IMG/VR virus record: IMGVR_UViG_2582580933_000014
DNA from: a virus
Taxonomy: Duplodnaviria; Heunggongvirae; Uroviricota; Caudoviricetes
Direction: 5' to 3' (one strand)
Length of the DNA: 4,239 bases
A model generated the notes under the pieces. It searched no databases, was not told the DNA's origin, and saw only the letters and a list, made by a program, of their open reading frames with translations. Below are positions 1 through 4,120 of this stretch, piece by piece. A program made the position numbers and the translations under genes. Within the stretch, counting starts at the first letter, position 1, and the number at the start of each line of letters is the position of its first letter.

Positions 1-46
1 TGATGACGCACCGGCGACAGGCTCGGGTGGTTTAACAATTACAGAT

Positions 47-700
47 GTGATGGCTGCGCAGGGGATGGTGCAGTCGAAAGCACCGCTTGGGTTTGCCTTA
101 TTCCTGGCAAAAGTTGGTGTTCAGGATCCTCAGTTTGCGATTGAAGGTCTGCTCAATTACGCGATGGCACTGGATAACCCGACATTGAACAAATTGAGTG
201 AAGAAACCCGGCTACAGATCATTCCTTACCTTGTGAATTTTGCCTTTGCTGATTATTCCAGGTCTGCGGCAAGTAAGGCTCGCTGTGAGCATTGTGCTGG
301 TACTGGATTTCATAATGTATTGCGCGAAGTGGTGAAACACTCCAGAAGCGGGGAGTCTGTTATCAAGGAAGAGTGGGTGAAGGAACTATGTCAGCATTGT
401 CATGGTAAGGGAGAAGTCAGCACAGCGTGCAGAGGGTGTAAGGGTAAAGGTATTGTCCTGGATGAAAAAAGAACCCGGCTTCATGGCACGCCTGTTTATA
501 AGATTTGTGGGCGTTGCAATGGAAACCGGTTTAGCCGTTTACCAACCACACTGGCGCGGCTTCATGTCCAGAAGCTGGTACCAGACCTGACGGATTATCA
601 GTGGTACAAAGGATATGCAGATGTCATTGATAAACTGGTTACAAAGTGCTGGCAGGAGGAAGCTTACGCTGAAGCACAATTGAGAAGGGTGACGAGATAA
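47..700 (+). CDS. Q-like late-gene antiterminator (candidate), carrying four CxxCxGxG cysteine repeats; the reading frame is open to the window start, so the true start may lie upstream
   Basis: 217-aa ORF ending TAA at 698-700. Four CxxC motifs each followed by Gly-rich residues (CEHCAGTG, CQHCHGKG, CRGCKGKG, CGRCNGN), a DnaJ-type zinc-finger pattern. Position directly upstream of a promoter/terminator leader and a lysis cassette matches the lambda Q - pR' - tR' - lysis layout. Assignment is by context and motifs, not by a homology search. No convincing Shine-Dalgarno before GTG 47 or ATG 50. Confidence 0.55.
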   Translation: MMAAQGMVQSKAPLGFALFLAKVGVQDPQFAIEGLLNYAMALDNPTLNKLSEETRLQIIPYLVNFAFADYSRSAASKARCEHCAGTGFHNVLREVVKHSRSGESVIKEEWVKELCQHCHGKGEVSTACRGCKGKGIVLDEKRTRLHGTPVYKICGRCNGNRFSRLPTTLARLHVQKLVPDLTDYQWYKGYADVIDKLVTKCWQEEAYAEAQLRRVTR

Positions 701-731
701 GCGATTTTCGCCGAAGATAACGACATAATGC

Positions 732-760
732 TTGTGTTTCTCAAAAAATATGGATAAGAT
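732..760 (+). promoter_or_regulatory. Putative sigma70 late promoter (pR'-like): TTGTGT - 17 bp - TAAGAT
   Basis: -35-like TTGTGT at 732-737 and -10-like TAAGAT at 755-760 with a 17-bp spacer, 30 bp after the stop of the Q-like gene. Predicted start near 767 would give a leader of roughly 60-65 nt ending at the terminator at 808-831. Motif match only. Confidence 0.3.
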
Positions 761-787
761 TTTCTCAACGATGGGGCTTGTGTATCT

Positions 788-804
788 ATCGTTGAACGAT
801 TTTT
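788..804 (+). other. Small palindrome ATCGTTGAACGAT followed by TTTT, inside the predicted leader transcript
   Basis: 13-bp palindrome at 788-800 (ATCGTT g AACGAT) followed by a T-run at 800-804. Could be a short RNA hairpin (5-bp stem, 3-nt loop) or a protein-binding site. Confidence 0.3.
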
Positions 805-807
805 ACG

Positions 808-831
808 ACCTCGCTATTGCGAGGTTTTTTT
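808..831 (+). terminator. Rho-independent terminator (tR'-like)
   Basis: Stem ACCTCGC (808-814), loop TATT (815-818), stem GCGAGGT (819-825), running into 7 T (825-831); a second T-run follows at 836-842. Classic GC-rich hairpin plus U-tract. Confidence 0.6.
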
Positions 832-868
832 ATGGTTTTTTTCTATTCAATCTACATCAAAATCAATG

Positions 869-877
869 TGTTATAAT
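869..877 (+). promoter_or_regulatory. Candidate extended -10 promoter element (TGtTATAAT) for the moron gene at 915
   Basis: TG at 869-870, consensus TATAAT at 872-877, downstream of the terminator and 38 bp upstream of the ATG at 915. No good -35 was seen, which extended -10 promoters can tolerate. Confidence 0.3.
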
Positions 878-914: not shown

Positions 915-1184
915 ATGAAACTGACCTCTATCCATCTTGAAATACTACGTCGAGTGAATGAATTGCAGCCAAAGGATTCTAGAATTCAGGCTGCATCATT
1001 ACCTCATCTCTCAGCAAAAGAGGTTAATTTTGCTATTTCAGATCTTGCTGATATAGGTTTTATCGATGTTATACGAAGCAAATCTGCCGAAGGTGGATTG
1101 ATTGCTAATGAGATAACGTCAAAAGGTTTTGCTTTTTTGAGTGAGATTGGCGCTGAAAAAAATTCATCGATGAGCACTCATTGA
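915..1184 (+). CDS. Small (89 aa) hypothetical protein with a winged-helix-like pattern; possible DNA-binding regulator
   Basis: ATG at 915 preceded by a strong Shine-Dalgarno AGGAGA (903-908). No transmembrane segment. Alternating hydrophobic periodicity (HLEILRRVNEL ... LSAKEVNFAISDLADIGFIDVIRSKSAEGGLIANEITSKGFAFL) resembles helix-turn-helix plus beta-wing, judged by eye. AT-rich composition unlike the flanking phage genes. Confidence 0.6.
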   Translation: MKLTSIHLEILRRVNELQPKDSRIQAASLPHLSAKEVNFAISDLADIGFIDVIRSKSAEGGLIANEITSKGFAFLSEIGAEKNSSMSTH

Positions 1185-1198
1185 TTTCTGCTTCAATC

Positions 1199-1216
1199 GG
1201 CTGCCAATTGGCAGCC
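1199..1216 (+). promoter_or_regulatory. Perfect 18-bp palindrome GGCTGCCAATTGGCAGCC (operator-like site or terminator-less stem-loop)
   Basis: GGCTGCCAA is the exact reverse complement of TTGGCAGCC. Lies 15 bp after the stop of the 915..1184 gene and is not followed by a T-run. Confidence 0.45.
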
Positions 1217-1381: not shown

Positions 1382-2188
1382 GTGGAATCGAAAGTGTCAT
1401 ATTTTTACAGAAGCAAGAATATTTCAGGTGTTTCTATAAATGAAGATAGCTTGATTAGCTTAAGCACGGCAATTGTCGAACGCTGCGTTAAAATGAATGA
1501 GCAAGCTCAAAAGGAAAGTAGGGAAGTTTGTGCTCAATGTGTTTTTTTTATTTTGTTCGATGGTAAGGGATATAAAGTTGATTCTATCGGTGAGCTTGTG
1601 AAATACTTTAGACAGGCCACTAGGATTGATCAAATAATTTTTACTATTGAAACTTATCAAAGTCGACAGTCTAACAGGATGAATGGATCTTGGATGGAGC
1701 TACGAATTGATGAGAGGAATTCAAATAGCAGCACAATGATTGTAGCATCGGAAGATAATGAGTGGGTTGACTCGTTATGGATTACGATTCAGGATTTACT
1801 TAACAAGTGCAAAAATAAATTTAGATTTTTTAGAACAGCTTGGACTATGTTAAGTATCCAGATTTCAGGTGTGACAGTTGGCTTTTTGCTTAGCTTATGG
1901 ACAGCCTCAAAACTGGCGCCAAAACTATCAATCGATGGTGCATTTGCTTTATCATTTATTTGTATCTTTATTTTGTTTTCGAACTTATGGAGCTTTGCTA
2001 TTCCATTAATAATTAAGCTTATCGACTTTTTGTTTCCTAGTGTTAAGTTTGTTATTAATGGTAAAAATTACTTTCACTGGAGTGTCCAGGCTATAATTGG
2101 AGCGATTGCCAGTGCGGTTATATTATATTTTATTAGCTCCATGTTGCTTTTTGCATTAGAAATGTTAAATAGCATCATTAAGAAATAG
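1382..2188 (+). CDS. Hypothetical membrane protein: soluble N-terminal domain (about 150 aa) plus about three C-terminal transmembrane helices; start codon uncertain
   Basis: 807-nt ORF, TAG stop at 2186-2188. Hydrophobic stretches ISGVTVGFLLSLWTASKLA, GAFALSFICIFILFSNLWSFAIPLIIKLI and VQAIIGAIASAVILYFISSMLLFALEML in the C-terminal third. Possible starts are GTG 1382, GTG 1394 or ATG 1493, none with a strong Shine-Dalgarno. A -35/-10-like pair TTGATG (1250-1255) - 16 bp - TATCAT (1272-1277) sits upstream. Strongly AT-rich. Confidence 0.6.
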   Translation: MESKVSYFYRSKNISGVSINEDSLISLSTAIVERCVKMNEQAQKESREVCAQCVFFILFDGKGYKVDSIGELVKYFRQATRIDQIIFTIETYQSRQSNRMNGSWMELRIDERNSNSSTMIVASEDNEWVDSLWITIQDLLNKCKNKFRFFRTAWTMLSIQISGVTVGFLLSLWTASKLAPKLSIDGAFALSFICIFILFSNLWSFAIPLIIKLIDFLFPSVKFVINGKNYFHWSVQAIIGAIASAVILYFISSMLLFALEMLNSIIKK

Positions 2189-2221: not shown

Positions 2222-2245
2222 GGCTGCCAAATGGTGGCCTTTTTT
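2222..2245 (+). terminator. Rho-independent terminator closing the moron
   Basis: Imperfect hairpin GGCTGCC AAAT GGTGGCC (2222-2239; 7-bp stem with two G-U pairs) followed by TTTTTT (2240-2245). Matches the upstream palindrome at 1199-1216 at 15 of 18 positions. Confidence 0.5.
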
Positions 2246-2296: not shown

Positions 2297-2683
2297 ATGT
2301 CCGATCCGATTTCCGGCACAGGGTTAGCTGGTGGAGCCCTAACGGGCGCTAGTATTTATGGACTGCTGACCGGAACTGATTACGGCGTTGTATTTGGCGC
2401 ATTTGCAGGGGCTGTATTCTATATAGCAACAGCAGCAGATCTGAGTGCATCGCGTCGACTGGCATATTTTATCGTGTCATATATTGCTGGGATCCTTTGC
2501 TCTGGGTTGGTTGGCTCCAAGCTGGCAAACTTGACCGGATACAGTGATAAACCTCTGGATGCTATTGGTGCCGTAATCGTCTCTGCTTTAGCCGTTAAAA
2601 TCCTGACGTTCCTGAATAATCAGGATATCGGCTCGCTGGTGGCGCTCATAACGCGCCGGGGAGGTTCAGGTGGAGCTAAATGA
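2297..2683 (+). CDS. Holin-like small membrane protein, first gene of the lysis cassette
   Basis: ATG at 2297 preceded by Shine-Dalgarno AAGAGGTGG (2285-2293); TGA stop at 2681-2683. 128 aa, Gly/Ala-rich with several hydrophobic helices (GVVFGAFAGAVFYIATAA, LAYFIVSYIAGILCSGLVG, AIGAVIVSALAVKILTFL) and a charged C-terminal tail. Lies directly upstream of the endolysin. The ORF-track start at ATG 2231 is inside the terminator hairpin and is considered spurious. Confidence 0.55.
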   Translation: MSDPISGTGLAGGALTGASIYGLLTGTDYGVVFGAFAGAVFYIATAADLSASRRLAYFIVSYIAGILCSGLVGSKLANLTGYSDKPLDAIGAVIVSALAVKILTFLNNQDIGSLVALITRRGGSGGAK

Positions 2684-2951
2684 CCCGACAGCAACTATTA
2701 ATGCGCTGTTATGTGCTTGTGTTGTTATTACTCTGATGTTTTATCGTCGTGGTGATTCGCGGCATCGTCCTTGGGTTTCACGTTTAGCCTGGCTGATTAC
2801 TGTTACATACAGTGCTGTTCCGTTGGCCTATCTCTGTGGGATTTATCCTCACTCCTCATGGCTCATTATCGTGGCGAATACTATTTTTCTTTCCGTGCTG
2901 GTGGCCGTCAGAGGCAACGTTGCACGTTTGGTTGATCATCTGAGGCACTAA
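2670..2951 (+). CDS. Second small membrane protein (93 aa, about three transmembrane helices); holin, antiholin or lysis-accessory protein
   Basis: GTG at 2670 preceded by Shine-Dalgarno GGGGAGG (2658-2664). Overlaps the upstream gene end and its TAA stop overlaps the endolysin ATG (TAATG at 2949-2953), indicating translational coupling inside the lysis cassette. Hydrophobic segments INALLCACVVITLMFY, LAWLITVTYSAVPLAYLCGIY and WLIIVANTIFLSVLVAV. Confidence 0.5.
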   Translation: MELNDPTATINALLCACVVITLMFYRRGDSRHRPWVSRLAWLITVTYSAVPLAYLCGIYPHSSWLIIVANTIFLSVLVAVRGNVARLVDHLRH

Positions 2952-3565
2952 TGAACCAACAATTATTTCAAAAGGCGGCTGGTATTAGTGCCGGGCTGGC
3001 TGCGCGCTGGTTTCCGCACATTGATGCGGCGATGAAGGAATTCGGCATTACAGTACCCGCGGATCAGGCAATGTTTATCGCTCAGGTAGGCCATGAGTCG
3101 ATGGGGTTTAGCGCCGTAGTTGAAAATTTTAACTACACACCATCTGCGCTGGTGGCGACGTTCGGAAAGAGGATCACACAGCAGCAGGCTGATGCCCTTG
3201 GCAGAACATCCGGACATGCAGCTCGTCAGGATGCTATTGCCAATCTGGTGTATAGCAACCGACTGGGTAACAAAGCCCCCGGTGATGGCTGGAAATATCG
3301 TGGTAGAGGATTAATTCAAATCACTGGCCTCCATAATTATCGCATCTGTGGTGCGGCGCTGAAGTTAGATCTGGTGACTTCACCTGAACAACTGGAACAG
3401 GAGCTACAGGCGGCGCGCTCAGCTGCATGGTTCTACACCTCTAAAGGCTGCATGATCTACGGTGCCGATATTAACCGTGTTACGCGCATCATTAACGGCG
3501 GTCTGAACGGTATTGAGGATCGTAAGGTCCGATACAACAAGGCGCGGGCGGCGCTGCTGGTATGA
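2951..3565 (+). CDS. Phage endolysin, glycoside hydrolase family 19 (chitinase-like lysozyme)
   Basis: 204 aa. The motifs FIAQVGHESMGF...VVENFNY and YRGRGLIQITGLHNY look like GH19 signatures, with two Glu residues (E49, E58) nine positions apart as expected for the catalytic pair in phage GH19 endolysins; this is from memory of the family, not a search. No hydrophobic N-terminal signal-anchor, so release is presumably holin-dependent. Start overlaps the upstream stop; Shine-Dalgarno GAGG at 2942-2945. Confidence 0.88.
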   Translation: MNQQLFQKAAGISAGLAARWFPHIDAAMKEFGITVPADQAMFIAQVGHESMGFSAVVENFNYTPSALVATFGKRITQQQADALGRTSGHAARQDAIANLVYSNRLGNKAPGDGWKYRGRGLIQITGLHNYRICGAALKLDLVTSPEQLEQELQAARSAAWFYTSKGCMIYGADINRVTRIINGGLNGIEDRKVRYNKARAALLV

Positions 3566-3954
3566 AGATGAGTTATTGGGCGCTCATTTTAACGTTTATT
3601 GCTTGTGTTGCTGGTGGTCTTGTCTGGTCAGCGAATCACTATCATGGAAAGTTTCTGGAGGAGCAGAAGCGTGCTGACGCTGCGGAACAGAGAGCTGATT
3701 CTACTGAGGCTATCACCGCGAATGTTCTGCGTACTATGGCAATAACGAACATCATTCAGGAGGCGAATCAACATGCAAAACAGCAGATCGCACTGGAGTC
3801 ACAGAGAACCCAGGAATATATCAAAGTGGCTGTTGCGAGTGATGATTGCGCTTCACGTCCTGTGCCTGCTACCGCTGCTGACCGGTTGCGGAAGTACGCG
3901 GACAGTTTACGTGAACATTCCGGCGGCACCACTGCCAGCCAGCCTGACTTCTGA
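3562..3954 (+). CDS. Rz-like inner-membrane spanin (i-spanin)
   Basis: ATG overlaps the endolysin stop (ATGA at 3562-3565). 130 aa with an N-terminal transmembrane helix (YWALILTFIACVAGGLVW) followed by a charged, Gln/Ala/Glu-rich helical periplasmic domain; sits in the Rz position after the endolysin. Confidence 0.8.
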   Translation: MKMSYWALILTFIACVAGGLVWSANHYHGKFLEEQKRADAAEQRADSTEAITANVLRTMAITNIIQEANQHAKQQIALESQRTQEYIKVAVASDDCASRPVPATAADRLRKYADSLREHSGGTTASQPDF

Positions 3955-4120
3955 AACACCGATTCCAATTATACCCAGTTCACTGACATATGGTGCTAGT
4001 CTGGAGTTGAATGTGGCTCTGTTGTCAGCGTTAGGACAATGTAATTTTGATAAAACCGGAATCAGAAATATTGAATCACGGCGCGCTATTTTGCATTCAA
4101 AGTATAAATATCCAGAGTGA
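3842..4120 (+). CDS. Rz1-like outer-membrane lipoprotein spanin (o-spanin), overlapping the 3' end of the Rz-like gene in another frame
   Basis: Internal ATG at 3842 of the 3773..4120 ORF gives MIALHVLCLLPLLTGC with lipobox LLTGC, followed by a Pro-rich region (NIPAAPLPASLTSETPIPIIP). Overlaps the last 113 nt of the Rz-like gene and extends 166 nt past it. At 92 aa it is long for an o-spanin, and both the start and the C-terminal tail are uncertain. Confidence 0.6.
   Translation: MIALHVLCLLPLLTGCGSTRTVYVNIPAAPLPASLTSETPIPIIPSSLTYGASLELNVALLSALGQCNFDKTGIRNIESRRAILHSKYKYPE

Follow-up and report, generated by a model that had tools for sequence, protein, structure and literature searches.

Several small polytopic proteins of the inner membrane, among them RexB of lambda, SieA and SieB of P22, Imm of T4 and gp15 of HK97, are carried by phages as non-essential cargo and are thought to act at the membrane against other phages. 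Here we describe a gene of the same general kind, which lies in a 4,239-base stretch of DNA from a Caudoviricetes record (IMG/VR IMGVR_UViG_2582580933_000014); this whole stretch, referred to below as the window, comes from a lambdoid Escherichia coli prophage and spans its late-regulation and lysis region. The gene occupies positions 1394..2188 on the + strand and encodes a membrane protein of 264 residues from an unnamed family (phrog_30208; RefSeq WP_001459463, listed as ‘hypothetical’ or ‘membrane domain protein’). The likeness to RexB, SieA/SieB, Imm and gp15 lies in being a small polytopic membrane protein carried as phage cargo. The window protein differs from them in having a large structured cytoplasmic domain, in being encoded in a late operon rather than an immunity or early region, and in needing no RexA-like partner, and it has no Pfam, PHROG or PADLOC match to any of them. 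The single best reading, and a tentative one, is that it is an abortive-infection or exclusion effector at the inner membrane; this reading is based on architecture, autonomy, mobility and neighbourhood.

Another set of described systems joins a sensor to transmembrane (TM) helices: Cap14 and Cap15 of CBASS, PycTM of Pycsar, the TM-Macro ThsA of type II Thoeris, and Cam1 and Cap1 of type III CRISPR (PMC10808066, PMC12642688). In these signalling effectors, a ligand-binding domain is joined to between two and four TM helices, which assemble into oligomers and depolarise the membrane, and the fusion of a soluble domain with TM helices is what they share with the window protein. However, their TM helices are N-terminal and they need a partner enzyme that makes a nucleotide signal, whereas the window protein has C-terminal TM helices and no recurrent partner; neither an adjacent signal generator nor a nucleotide-binding sensor was found. 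The PADLOC ‘2TM’ and ‘TIR’ effector models give singleton, noise-level matches among the relatives: one of 92 matches the ‘Effector TIR’ model PDLC00730 (E = 1e-4) and two others match ‘2TM effector’ models (~0.01), all of them probably compositional.

In terms of genomic position, a close comparison is with the morons found between the antiterminator gene Q and the holin, such as the stx genes and an orphan N6/N4 methylase. These share with the window gene the slot directly after the terminator tR', low GC content, presence/absence polymorphism, a boundary terminator and transcription by Q-modified polymerase; the window gene differs in encoding a putative membrane protein, and its own promoter is only a candidate. 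Co-transcription of Stx with the late genes has been described (PMC8065619). The usual marks of a moron, deviant base composition and presence or absence among related phages, are both seen (34% GC in the gene against 48-51% in its flanks). LysA of P2, LydB of P1 and RI of T4 are similar in being late-expressed and encoded beside the holin, and several of them are membrane proteins, but there is no family match to them, and the window family occurs with unrelated holins and mostly outside phages. At the level of folds, the comparison is with the AdoMetDC-like or TBP-like alpha-beta sandwich (PDB 2iii, 1vr7, 3c6k N-domain, 4jhy). Prophage cargo encoding a membrane protein possibly engaged in phage conflict is thus of a familiar kind, while the family, the fold and the partner-less design of an N-domain plus three TM helices are without description in the sources searched.

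The product is a predicted inner-membrane protein, in which a cytoplasmic alpha/beta-sandwich domain of about 140 residues is connected by a basic juxtamembrane helix to three long TM helices. The initial annotation, made from the letters of the DNA and a list of its open reading frames (ORFs), had described a hydrophilic N-terminal part followed by a C-terminal third with about three strongly hydrophobic helices, and this layout is borne out. Mean Kyte-Doolittle hydropathy is -0.40 over residues 1-148 versus +1.24 over residues 149-264, a split (z = 4.2) that none of 20,000 permutations reached. There are three charge-free runs (residues 148-172, 182-207 and 225-255) and three peaks of family-averaged hydropathy. 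AlphaFold, given a 92-sequence alignment, returned a confident model (pLDDT 93.9, pTM 0.83) with an alpha/beta domain over residues 1-138, followed by a short basic helix and then by long helices at 149-177, 183-213 and 226-263. The three hydrophobic helices are of membrane-spanning length and obey the positive-inside rule: across the family, the mean number of lysines plus arginines (K+R) is 3.5 before TM helix 1, 0.55 in the loop between helices 1 and 2, and 3.3 in the loop between helices 2 and 3. This distribution places the N-terminus inside and the C-terminus outside. The TM assignment combines hydropathy and charge bias with the family profile and the helices of the AlphaFold model, and the parts of the protein map to the DNA as follows.

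1394..1813, + strand: cytoplasmic alpha/beta domain (residues 1-140)
1814..1837, + strand: basic juxtamembrane segment KNKFRFFR (residues 141-148; K+R 3.5), with a short helix at 142-147
1838..1924, + strand: TM helix 1 (residues 149-177), with Q156 and a small-residue zipper G159/G163/S167/A171
1940..2032, + strand: TM helix 2 (residues 183-213), with a mid-membrane S196-N197-x-W199 motif
2033..2068, + strand: basic cytoplasmic loop (residues 214-225; K+R 3.3), with F-P215-x-x-x-F219 and a short strand at 217-219
2069..2182, + strand: TM helix 3 (residues 226-263), the least conserved part, from AlphaFold and the family profile

Conservation is high inside the membrane module. In TM helix 1, Q156 is conserved in 97% of the family and the small residues G159, G163, S167 and A171 in 96, 63, 90 and 95%, respectively; in TM helix 2 the corresponding values are 91% for N197 and 98% for W199, and in the cytoplasmic loop 96% for P215 and 97% for F219. 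The retention of polar and small residues within TM helices suggests helix packing or a polar pathway, and hence a functional module rather than a passive anchor. Near-invariant positions of the N-domain are D7, R54, D56, G59, A75, E79, R80 and W124.

The gene had been delimited earlier as an ORF at 1382-2188. It is a real gene under selection, in the frame proposed, and its start is most likely the GTG at 1394 rather than position 1382, as judged from annotation and alignment. The RefSeq start is 1394, distant homologs have ATG at the position aligned with it (MANYSR.., MAKYLR.., MASYFR..), and position 1382 is GTA in a relative with 77% identity. A start at M38, where the PHROG profile and some gene calls begin, was rejected from the alignment and from the selection on the preceding codons: the ratio of nonsynonymous to synonymous substitution rates (dN/dS) over codons 1-37 is 0.13, versus 0.11 and 0.12 elsewhere, or about 0.12 throughout the gene. 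Codons 1-37 are thus under the same purifying selection as the rest, which rules out M38. The phrog_30208 profile, which begins at residue 38 of the ORF as first delimited, accordingly leaves out a conserved and selected N-terminus. Elsewhere, the L012/L013 copy (~5890-6696, P0003; L numbers denote individual loci) is annotated only from the equivalent of M38, with a seemingly interrupted frame upstream, in a prophage that has decayed 3' of the holin.

The family to which the protein belongs can be delimited by profile searching. The window protein matches phrog_30208 (PHROGs v4, unannotated) at 8.5e-162, and so belongs to the same family. A word-indexed homolog search gave only nine clusters, and an exhaustive profile search gave 230 (50% identity, E <= 1e-3), including 126 at E <= 1e-30. 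Nearly all members have 255-270 residues, match end to end, and share the architecture of N-domain plus three TM helices. The 92-sequence alignment was too diverse for scanning loci, and smaller alignments were used there. The sensor-plus-membrane-module layout had been likened to that of abortive-infection (Abi) and superinfection-exclusion (Sie) effectors; the layout and the status as prophage cargo hold, and no known Abi, Sie or defence family matches. In particular, the window protein has no match in PADLOC-DB v2 (E <= 1) or Pfam (E <= 0.1), the RexB, SieB, Imm and Abi families included, and scanning the 92 relatives against Pfam, PADLOC, NCBIfam and PHROGs found no named family, just singleton matches at noise level. 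The sequence profile likewise found no match in the PDB, and neither a functional motif nor a known fold was recognised in the protein. A literature search under the protein accession and the PHROG identifier, and on defence hotspots in the slot between Q and holin, returned nothing specific.

Outside phages, the gene is found in a variety of settings. The family is sparsely distributed and horizontally mobile, and consists of a single gene without a fixed partner: among the 140 nearest-neighbour ORFs of 51 metagenome loci, no recurrent partner family was found. Over 48 loci, the GC content of the gene averages 7.8 points below that of its flanks. In six of the nine long non-phage loci, a count made without a matched background, the gene is within 1-3 genes of AbiE, TIR/SpbK-like, PDC-S08, PDC-S27 or toxin-antitoxin (TA) modules. 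At the long loci the gene stands alone within small variable islets; the surroundings at individual loci are listed below.

L036: AbiEi/AbiEii with RhuM and YafQ/RelB alongside the gene
L038: DUF6088/AbiEii and a PDC-S27 ATPase alongside
L039: a Panacea-type TA module alongside
L018: a Gp49/HTH_37 pair, HigB/HigA-like, alongside
L034: a conjugative element, with the gene between a TIR-effector-like and an SpbK-like TIR protein
L040: a PDC-S08 candidate directly downstream
L019 and L033: the gene solitary among housekeeping operons

The PADLOC matches behind some of these neighbours are to a CBASS-type TIR effector (L034 8797-9468, 1.6e-9), SpbK (L034 14919-15818, 6.9e-31), PDC-S08 (L040 1035-2000, 1e-124) and PDC-S27 (L038 3612-5096, 1.8e-175). 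Two neighbours of distant family members, of 1,686 and 1,071 residues, have no match at all. The 140 metagenome neighbours mix housekeeping genes with defence-type ones (type IIG restriction-modification, AbiEii, NERD, SoFic, a type I S subunit and PDC candidates).

These settings bear on an explanation without any conflict, in which the protein is an accessory membrane protein with a role in lysogenic conversion or in an envelope or stress function, or is near-neutral cargo, and simply travels in variable regions. The lack of a functional motif or known fold, the many housekeeping neighbours and the counting of defence-island neighbours without a matched background all speak for this. Against it are the strong purifying selection and the fixed architecture across about 230 clusters, the defence or TA genes found close by in six of the nine long loci, and a sporadic, AT-skewed, single-gene distribution that is typical of conflict genes; we regard the explanation as rather unlikely.

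The window itself shows how the gene is carried in E. coli. It is identical over 4,192 nucleotides (100%) to a prophage in E. coli strain CFIAFB20190172 that looks complete, having integrase, repressor, Q, lysis, terminase, capsid and contractile-tail genes. The features of the window around the membrane-protein gene are given below.

1..700, + strand: 3' part of the Q antiterminator gene (PF03589 Antiterm, 4.9e-49; phrog_127, 3.1e-91), which extends beyond the 5' end of the window; the RefSeq coding sequence starts 52 nucleotides upstream
701..833, + strand: conserved region, putatively the late promoter and qut, closing with a tR'-type intrinsic terminator (hairpin 807-826 plus T run)
869..877, + strand: perfect extended -10 element TGTTATAAT, a candidate promoter for the cargo region and the sole match in the window
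915..1184, + strand: gene for an 89-residue winged-helix protein, ATG start with a strong Shine-Dalgarno sequence (phrog_32916, 2.9e-61; weak DUF2513/HTH_45 matches)
1199..1216, + strand: strong hairpin lacking a U tract, located between the two cargo genes (-15.7 kcal/mol, z = -3.1), not called as a terminator
2222..2245, + strand: intrinsic terminator that bounds the cargo slot on its 3' side, from the terminator scan and hairpin folding
2297..2683, + strand: holin (Phage_holin_8; PF16931, 1.5e-34; phrog_198; RefSeq start), the first gene 3' of the cargo slot
2670-2951, + strand: second holin (Phage_holin_3_7), lysis cassette
2951-3565, + strand: GH19 endolysin, lysis cassette
3562-3954, + strand: Rz-like i-spanin ORF (phrog_214, 4.6e-45)
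3773-4120, + strand: Rz1/LysC, lysis cassette

Between 701 and 2296, only 701..833 is common to hundreds of other E. coli prophages and to phages Stx2c, SfV and mEp460; what is shared with other prophages is just the first ~130 nucleotides after Q, plus the holin leader. The organisation of lambdoid phages suggests that 701..833 contains PR' and qut, and the tR' hairpin at its end was found by the terminator scan (-14.8 kcal/mol, z = -5.7). Between tR' and the terminator at 2222-2245 is a block of low GC content (30-38% versus ~50%) that holds the winged-helix gene and the membrane-protein gene. The ~1.4 kb between the conserved post-Q stretch and the holin leader is carried by only 41 of the 5,426 complete E. 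coli genomes searched, and in another E. coli prophage (L119) the same hairpin as at 2222-2245 and the holin leader follow a different cargo gene on the opposite strand. Since the segment occurs in few genomes and a different gene takes the same slot elsewhere, the membrane-protein gene is cargo in the classical slot between Q and holin. The terminator cannot be considered private to this gene, as it bounds the slot of another cargo too; it is kept in L002, L012 and L031, while L006 and L120 have an unrelated hairpin plus T run. The hairpins at 1199-1216 and 2222-2239 have sequence in common (GGCTGCCAATTGGCAGCC and GGCTGCCAAATGGTGGCC), the first without a T run and the second with T6; since the second also bounds the different cargo gene of L119, the two may be recombination joints of the slot.

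The same slot is used by related copies in other enterobacterial phages. Every phage copy with enough flanking sequence is the last gene before the holin, down to 32% identity, and this holds across four Q families and at least two unrelated types of holin and endolysin.

Window: Q of PF03589; Phage_holin_8, Phage_holin_3_7 and GH19
L002 and L012: Q of PF06323; lysis type as in the window
L006 and L007: Q of PF06530; Phage_holin_2_1 and Phage_lysozyme
L120: Q of phrog_753; the membrane-protein gene is the sole cargo

The phage copies have 29-34% GC in surroundings of 46-57%, each is followed by a hairpin and T run, and they form a monophyletic group in a neighbour-joining tree (bootstrap 24/40). 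Judged by position and by established lambdoid biology, they must be transcribed together with the lysis genes by Q-modified RNA polymerase. This fidelity to the slot raises the alternative of a late-phase function for the phage itself, for instance modulation of its own lysis (as a modulator of the proton-motive force or of the holin trigger, or as an antiholin-like regulator) or late superinfection exclusion. Adjacency to the holin within the Q-dependent late transcript at this depth of divergence, together with the lack of a conserved promoter of the copies' own, speaks for such a function; in addition, the weak translation signals would hold a membrane-active protein low until late, and the phage clade has diverged at N-domain residues conserved elsewhere. 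However, holins of unrelated classes (Phage_holin_8 and Phage_holin_3_7 with GH19 versus Phage_holin_2_1 with Phage_lysozyme) speak against a dedicated holin partner, the bulk of the family is in non-phage loci without lysis genes, and the slot is a general cargo site with unrelated genes in other prophages. Neither Pfam nor PHROG lysis families, holin and antiholin families included, match the window protein, and the Phage_holin_3_3 match of one relative (0.019) is noise. With these points taken together, we consider a late-phase function unlikely.

All members of the phage clade lack D7, R54 and R80, three residues that are 86-95% conserved in the family, and keep D56, E/D79 and the TM motifs. 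The three positions (codons 1412-1414, 1553-1555 and 1631-1633 on the + strand) have been replaced together, by S/N, L/Y/T/W and Q/K/S, respectively. In the rest of the family they may make up a network of salt bridges or a site for a ligand. One explanation built on this loss is counter-defence or self-immunity: the phage clade would derive from a bacterial membrane effector that has shed its sensing residues, and the late-operon product would either neutralise a related effector made by the host or shield the prophage after its induction. The monophyly of the clade, its uniform lack of D7/R54/R80 and its intact TM motifs fit this explanation, as does a late-operon placement resembling that of ati, a Q-controlled counter-defence gene of phage phi80 (PMC11364771). 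On the other hand, no canonical family member that could serve as target was found in Enterobacteria, and the lost residues may form merely a structural salt bridge; by analogy with ati the idea is conceivable, but it is very unlikely. Another proposal, which we consider quite improbable, is that the family is a hitherto unrecognised single-gene membrane defence effector of new fold, captured once by lambdoid phages, stripped of D7, R54 and R80, and long kept at the head of the late operon for the phage's own use as a membrane-active device, silent in the lysogen and firing with Q. That use could be setting or triggering lysis by collapse of the proton-motive force, shutting out late superinfection, or neutralising a related host effector.

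How the gene is expressed is relevant to all of these possibilities. The weak translation start noted in the initial annotation is confirmed: the start codon is GTG, with GGAG 11 nucleotides upstream, and no phage-clade relative has a good Shine-Dalgarno sequence. The promoter proposed there for the gene, TTGATG-16-TATCAT at 1250-1277, fared less well; it is present but matches consensus at 9 of 12 positions, as expected by chance (6 promoter-like sites in the region versus 5.3 +/- 2.1 in shuffled sequences), and on the + strand it lies upstream of 1345, where DNA homology with relatives begins, and so outside the conserved unit. The extended -10 element TGTTATAAT at 869-877 is directly after tR' and 38 nucleotides upstream of the ATG at 915, and as a cargo promoter it is positionally more attractive than 1250-1277. 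With 0.26 matches expected by chance it is not statistically significant, and the assignment is suggestive only. Because the hairpin after the winged-helix gene has no U tract, readthrough from TGTTATAAT is possible, and this element may drive expression of the entire cargo block in the lysogen.

The winged-helix gene at 915-1184 could also be thought of as one half of a TA-like pair, its product repressing or neutralising the membrane protein. In favour are the position of a small DNA-binding gene immediately before a membrane gene of potential toxicity, the constant co-occurrence of the two in the 41 E. coli genomes, and a possible shared promoter at 869-877. However, the genes are 210 nucleotides apart with a strong hairpin between them, the upstream position in relatives is taken by a methylase or other ORFs or is empty, and no recurrent neighbour is seen among non-phage members. 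The winged-helix gene itself is absent from the relatives' loci, where the N6/N4 methylase or other genes are found instead; it is co-cargo specific to the present prophage lineage rather than a conserved partner. The pairing not being conserved, both a functional partnership and a TA-like pair were rejected, the latter as exceedingly unlikely.

If the effector reading is correct, the most likely mechanism would be as follows. The TM module would self-associate via the small-residue zipper of TM helix 1, the polar Q156 and S196-N197-W199, and the cytoplasmic domain would dock on the basic loop between TM helices 2 and 3, thereby controlling or localising the module. Placed in the inner membrane, the protein would take part in conflict between phage and host or between phages, with one of two outcomes: collapse of membrane integrity (abortive infection) or failure of a competitor to enter (exclusion). 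In enterobacterial lambdoid phages, one clade of the family is long-term cargo between tR' and the holin, transcribed with the late operon and poorly translated. The gene, its start, topology, family, autonomy, slot and selection are supported by the analysis itself; oligomerisation, gating and any anti-phage effect are steps that we infer.

Several observations weigh against an abortive-infection or exclusion effector. No sequence or structural link to a characterised Abi, Sie or defence effector was found. Translated searches of 50,697 isolated-phage genomes and 72,556 plasmids gave no homologs, and with no isolated phage or plasmid carrying the gene, no phenotype has ever been reported. A late operon, immediately ahead of the holin, is not where a prophage-encoded Abi or Sie gene is classically found. 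No convincing promoter is conserved upstream of the copies across the phage-clade loci and, given the late-operon position as well, expression is best established for lytic growth; it is possible in the lysogen too, the state in which a defence gene is needed. The loss of three near-invariant N-domain residues means that the function of the phage clade may differ from that of the chromosomal relatives. Finally, housekeeping genes flank many of the loci (HSP90, ribonucleotide reductase, purine synthesis, nuo, nusA/infB), and the evidence from neighbourhood is circumstantial: the family behaves as an autonomous, horizontally moving accessory gene with a defence-island flavour, but the enrichment, counted without a matched background, is suggestive.

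Should an action of the protein on the membrane against phages be borne out, it would represent a new family of partner-less effectors with a sensor and three TM helices, without structural precedent, found both in prophages of E. coli and in the defence islets of many environmental bacteria. The phage clade, with its fidelity to the slot, persistent AT-richness and lost residues, offers a tractable case of lambdoid phages domesticating mobile membrane genes, and it also bears on the purpose of late-operon cargo other than toxins. If the gene is inert cargo, the value of the analysis is limited to better annotation, namely the start codon, the topology and the definition of the family.

Other genes of the slot were also compared. 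In enterobacterial phages, the usual upstream neighbour of the membrane-protein gene is the orphan N6/N4 DNA methyltransferase (L002 4886-5941, L007 2541-3614, L012 4760-5806, L016 936-1973). It was rejected as a functional partner: a C-terminal remnant is left in L006 (2330-2415), the gene has been deleted from the window, and it is absent from L120 and all non-phage loci. In one sub-clade, a conserved winged-helix-like ORF of 65-73 residues (MLNQNDMTE...) stands at the head of the cargo region, ahead of the methylase (L006 2096-2296, L007 2188-2409, L009 49-246, L016 582-782); BLAST finds no similarity between it and the 89-residue protein of the window. In the lysis cassette, the Phage_holin_8 and Phage_holin_3_7 genes (2297-2951) overlap by 14 nucleotides, and one of them possibly encodes an antiholin. 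The Rz-like ORF at 3562-3954 is unannotated in the RefSeq record, which has just the overlapping Rz1/LysC gene (3773-4120).

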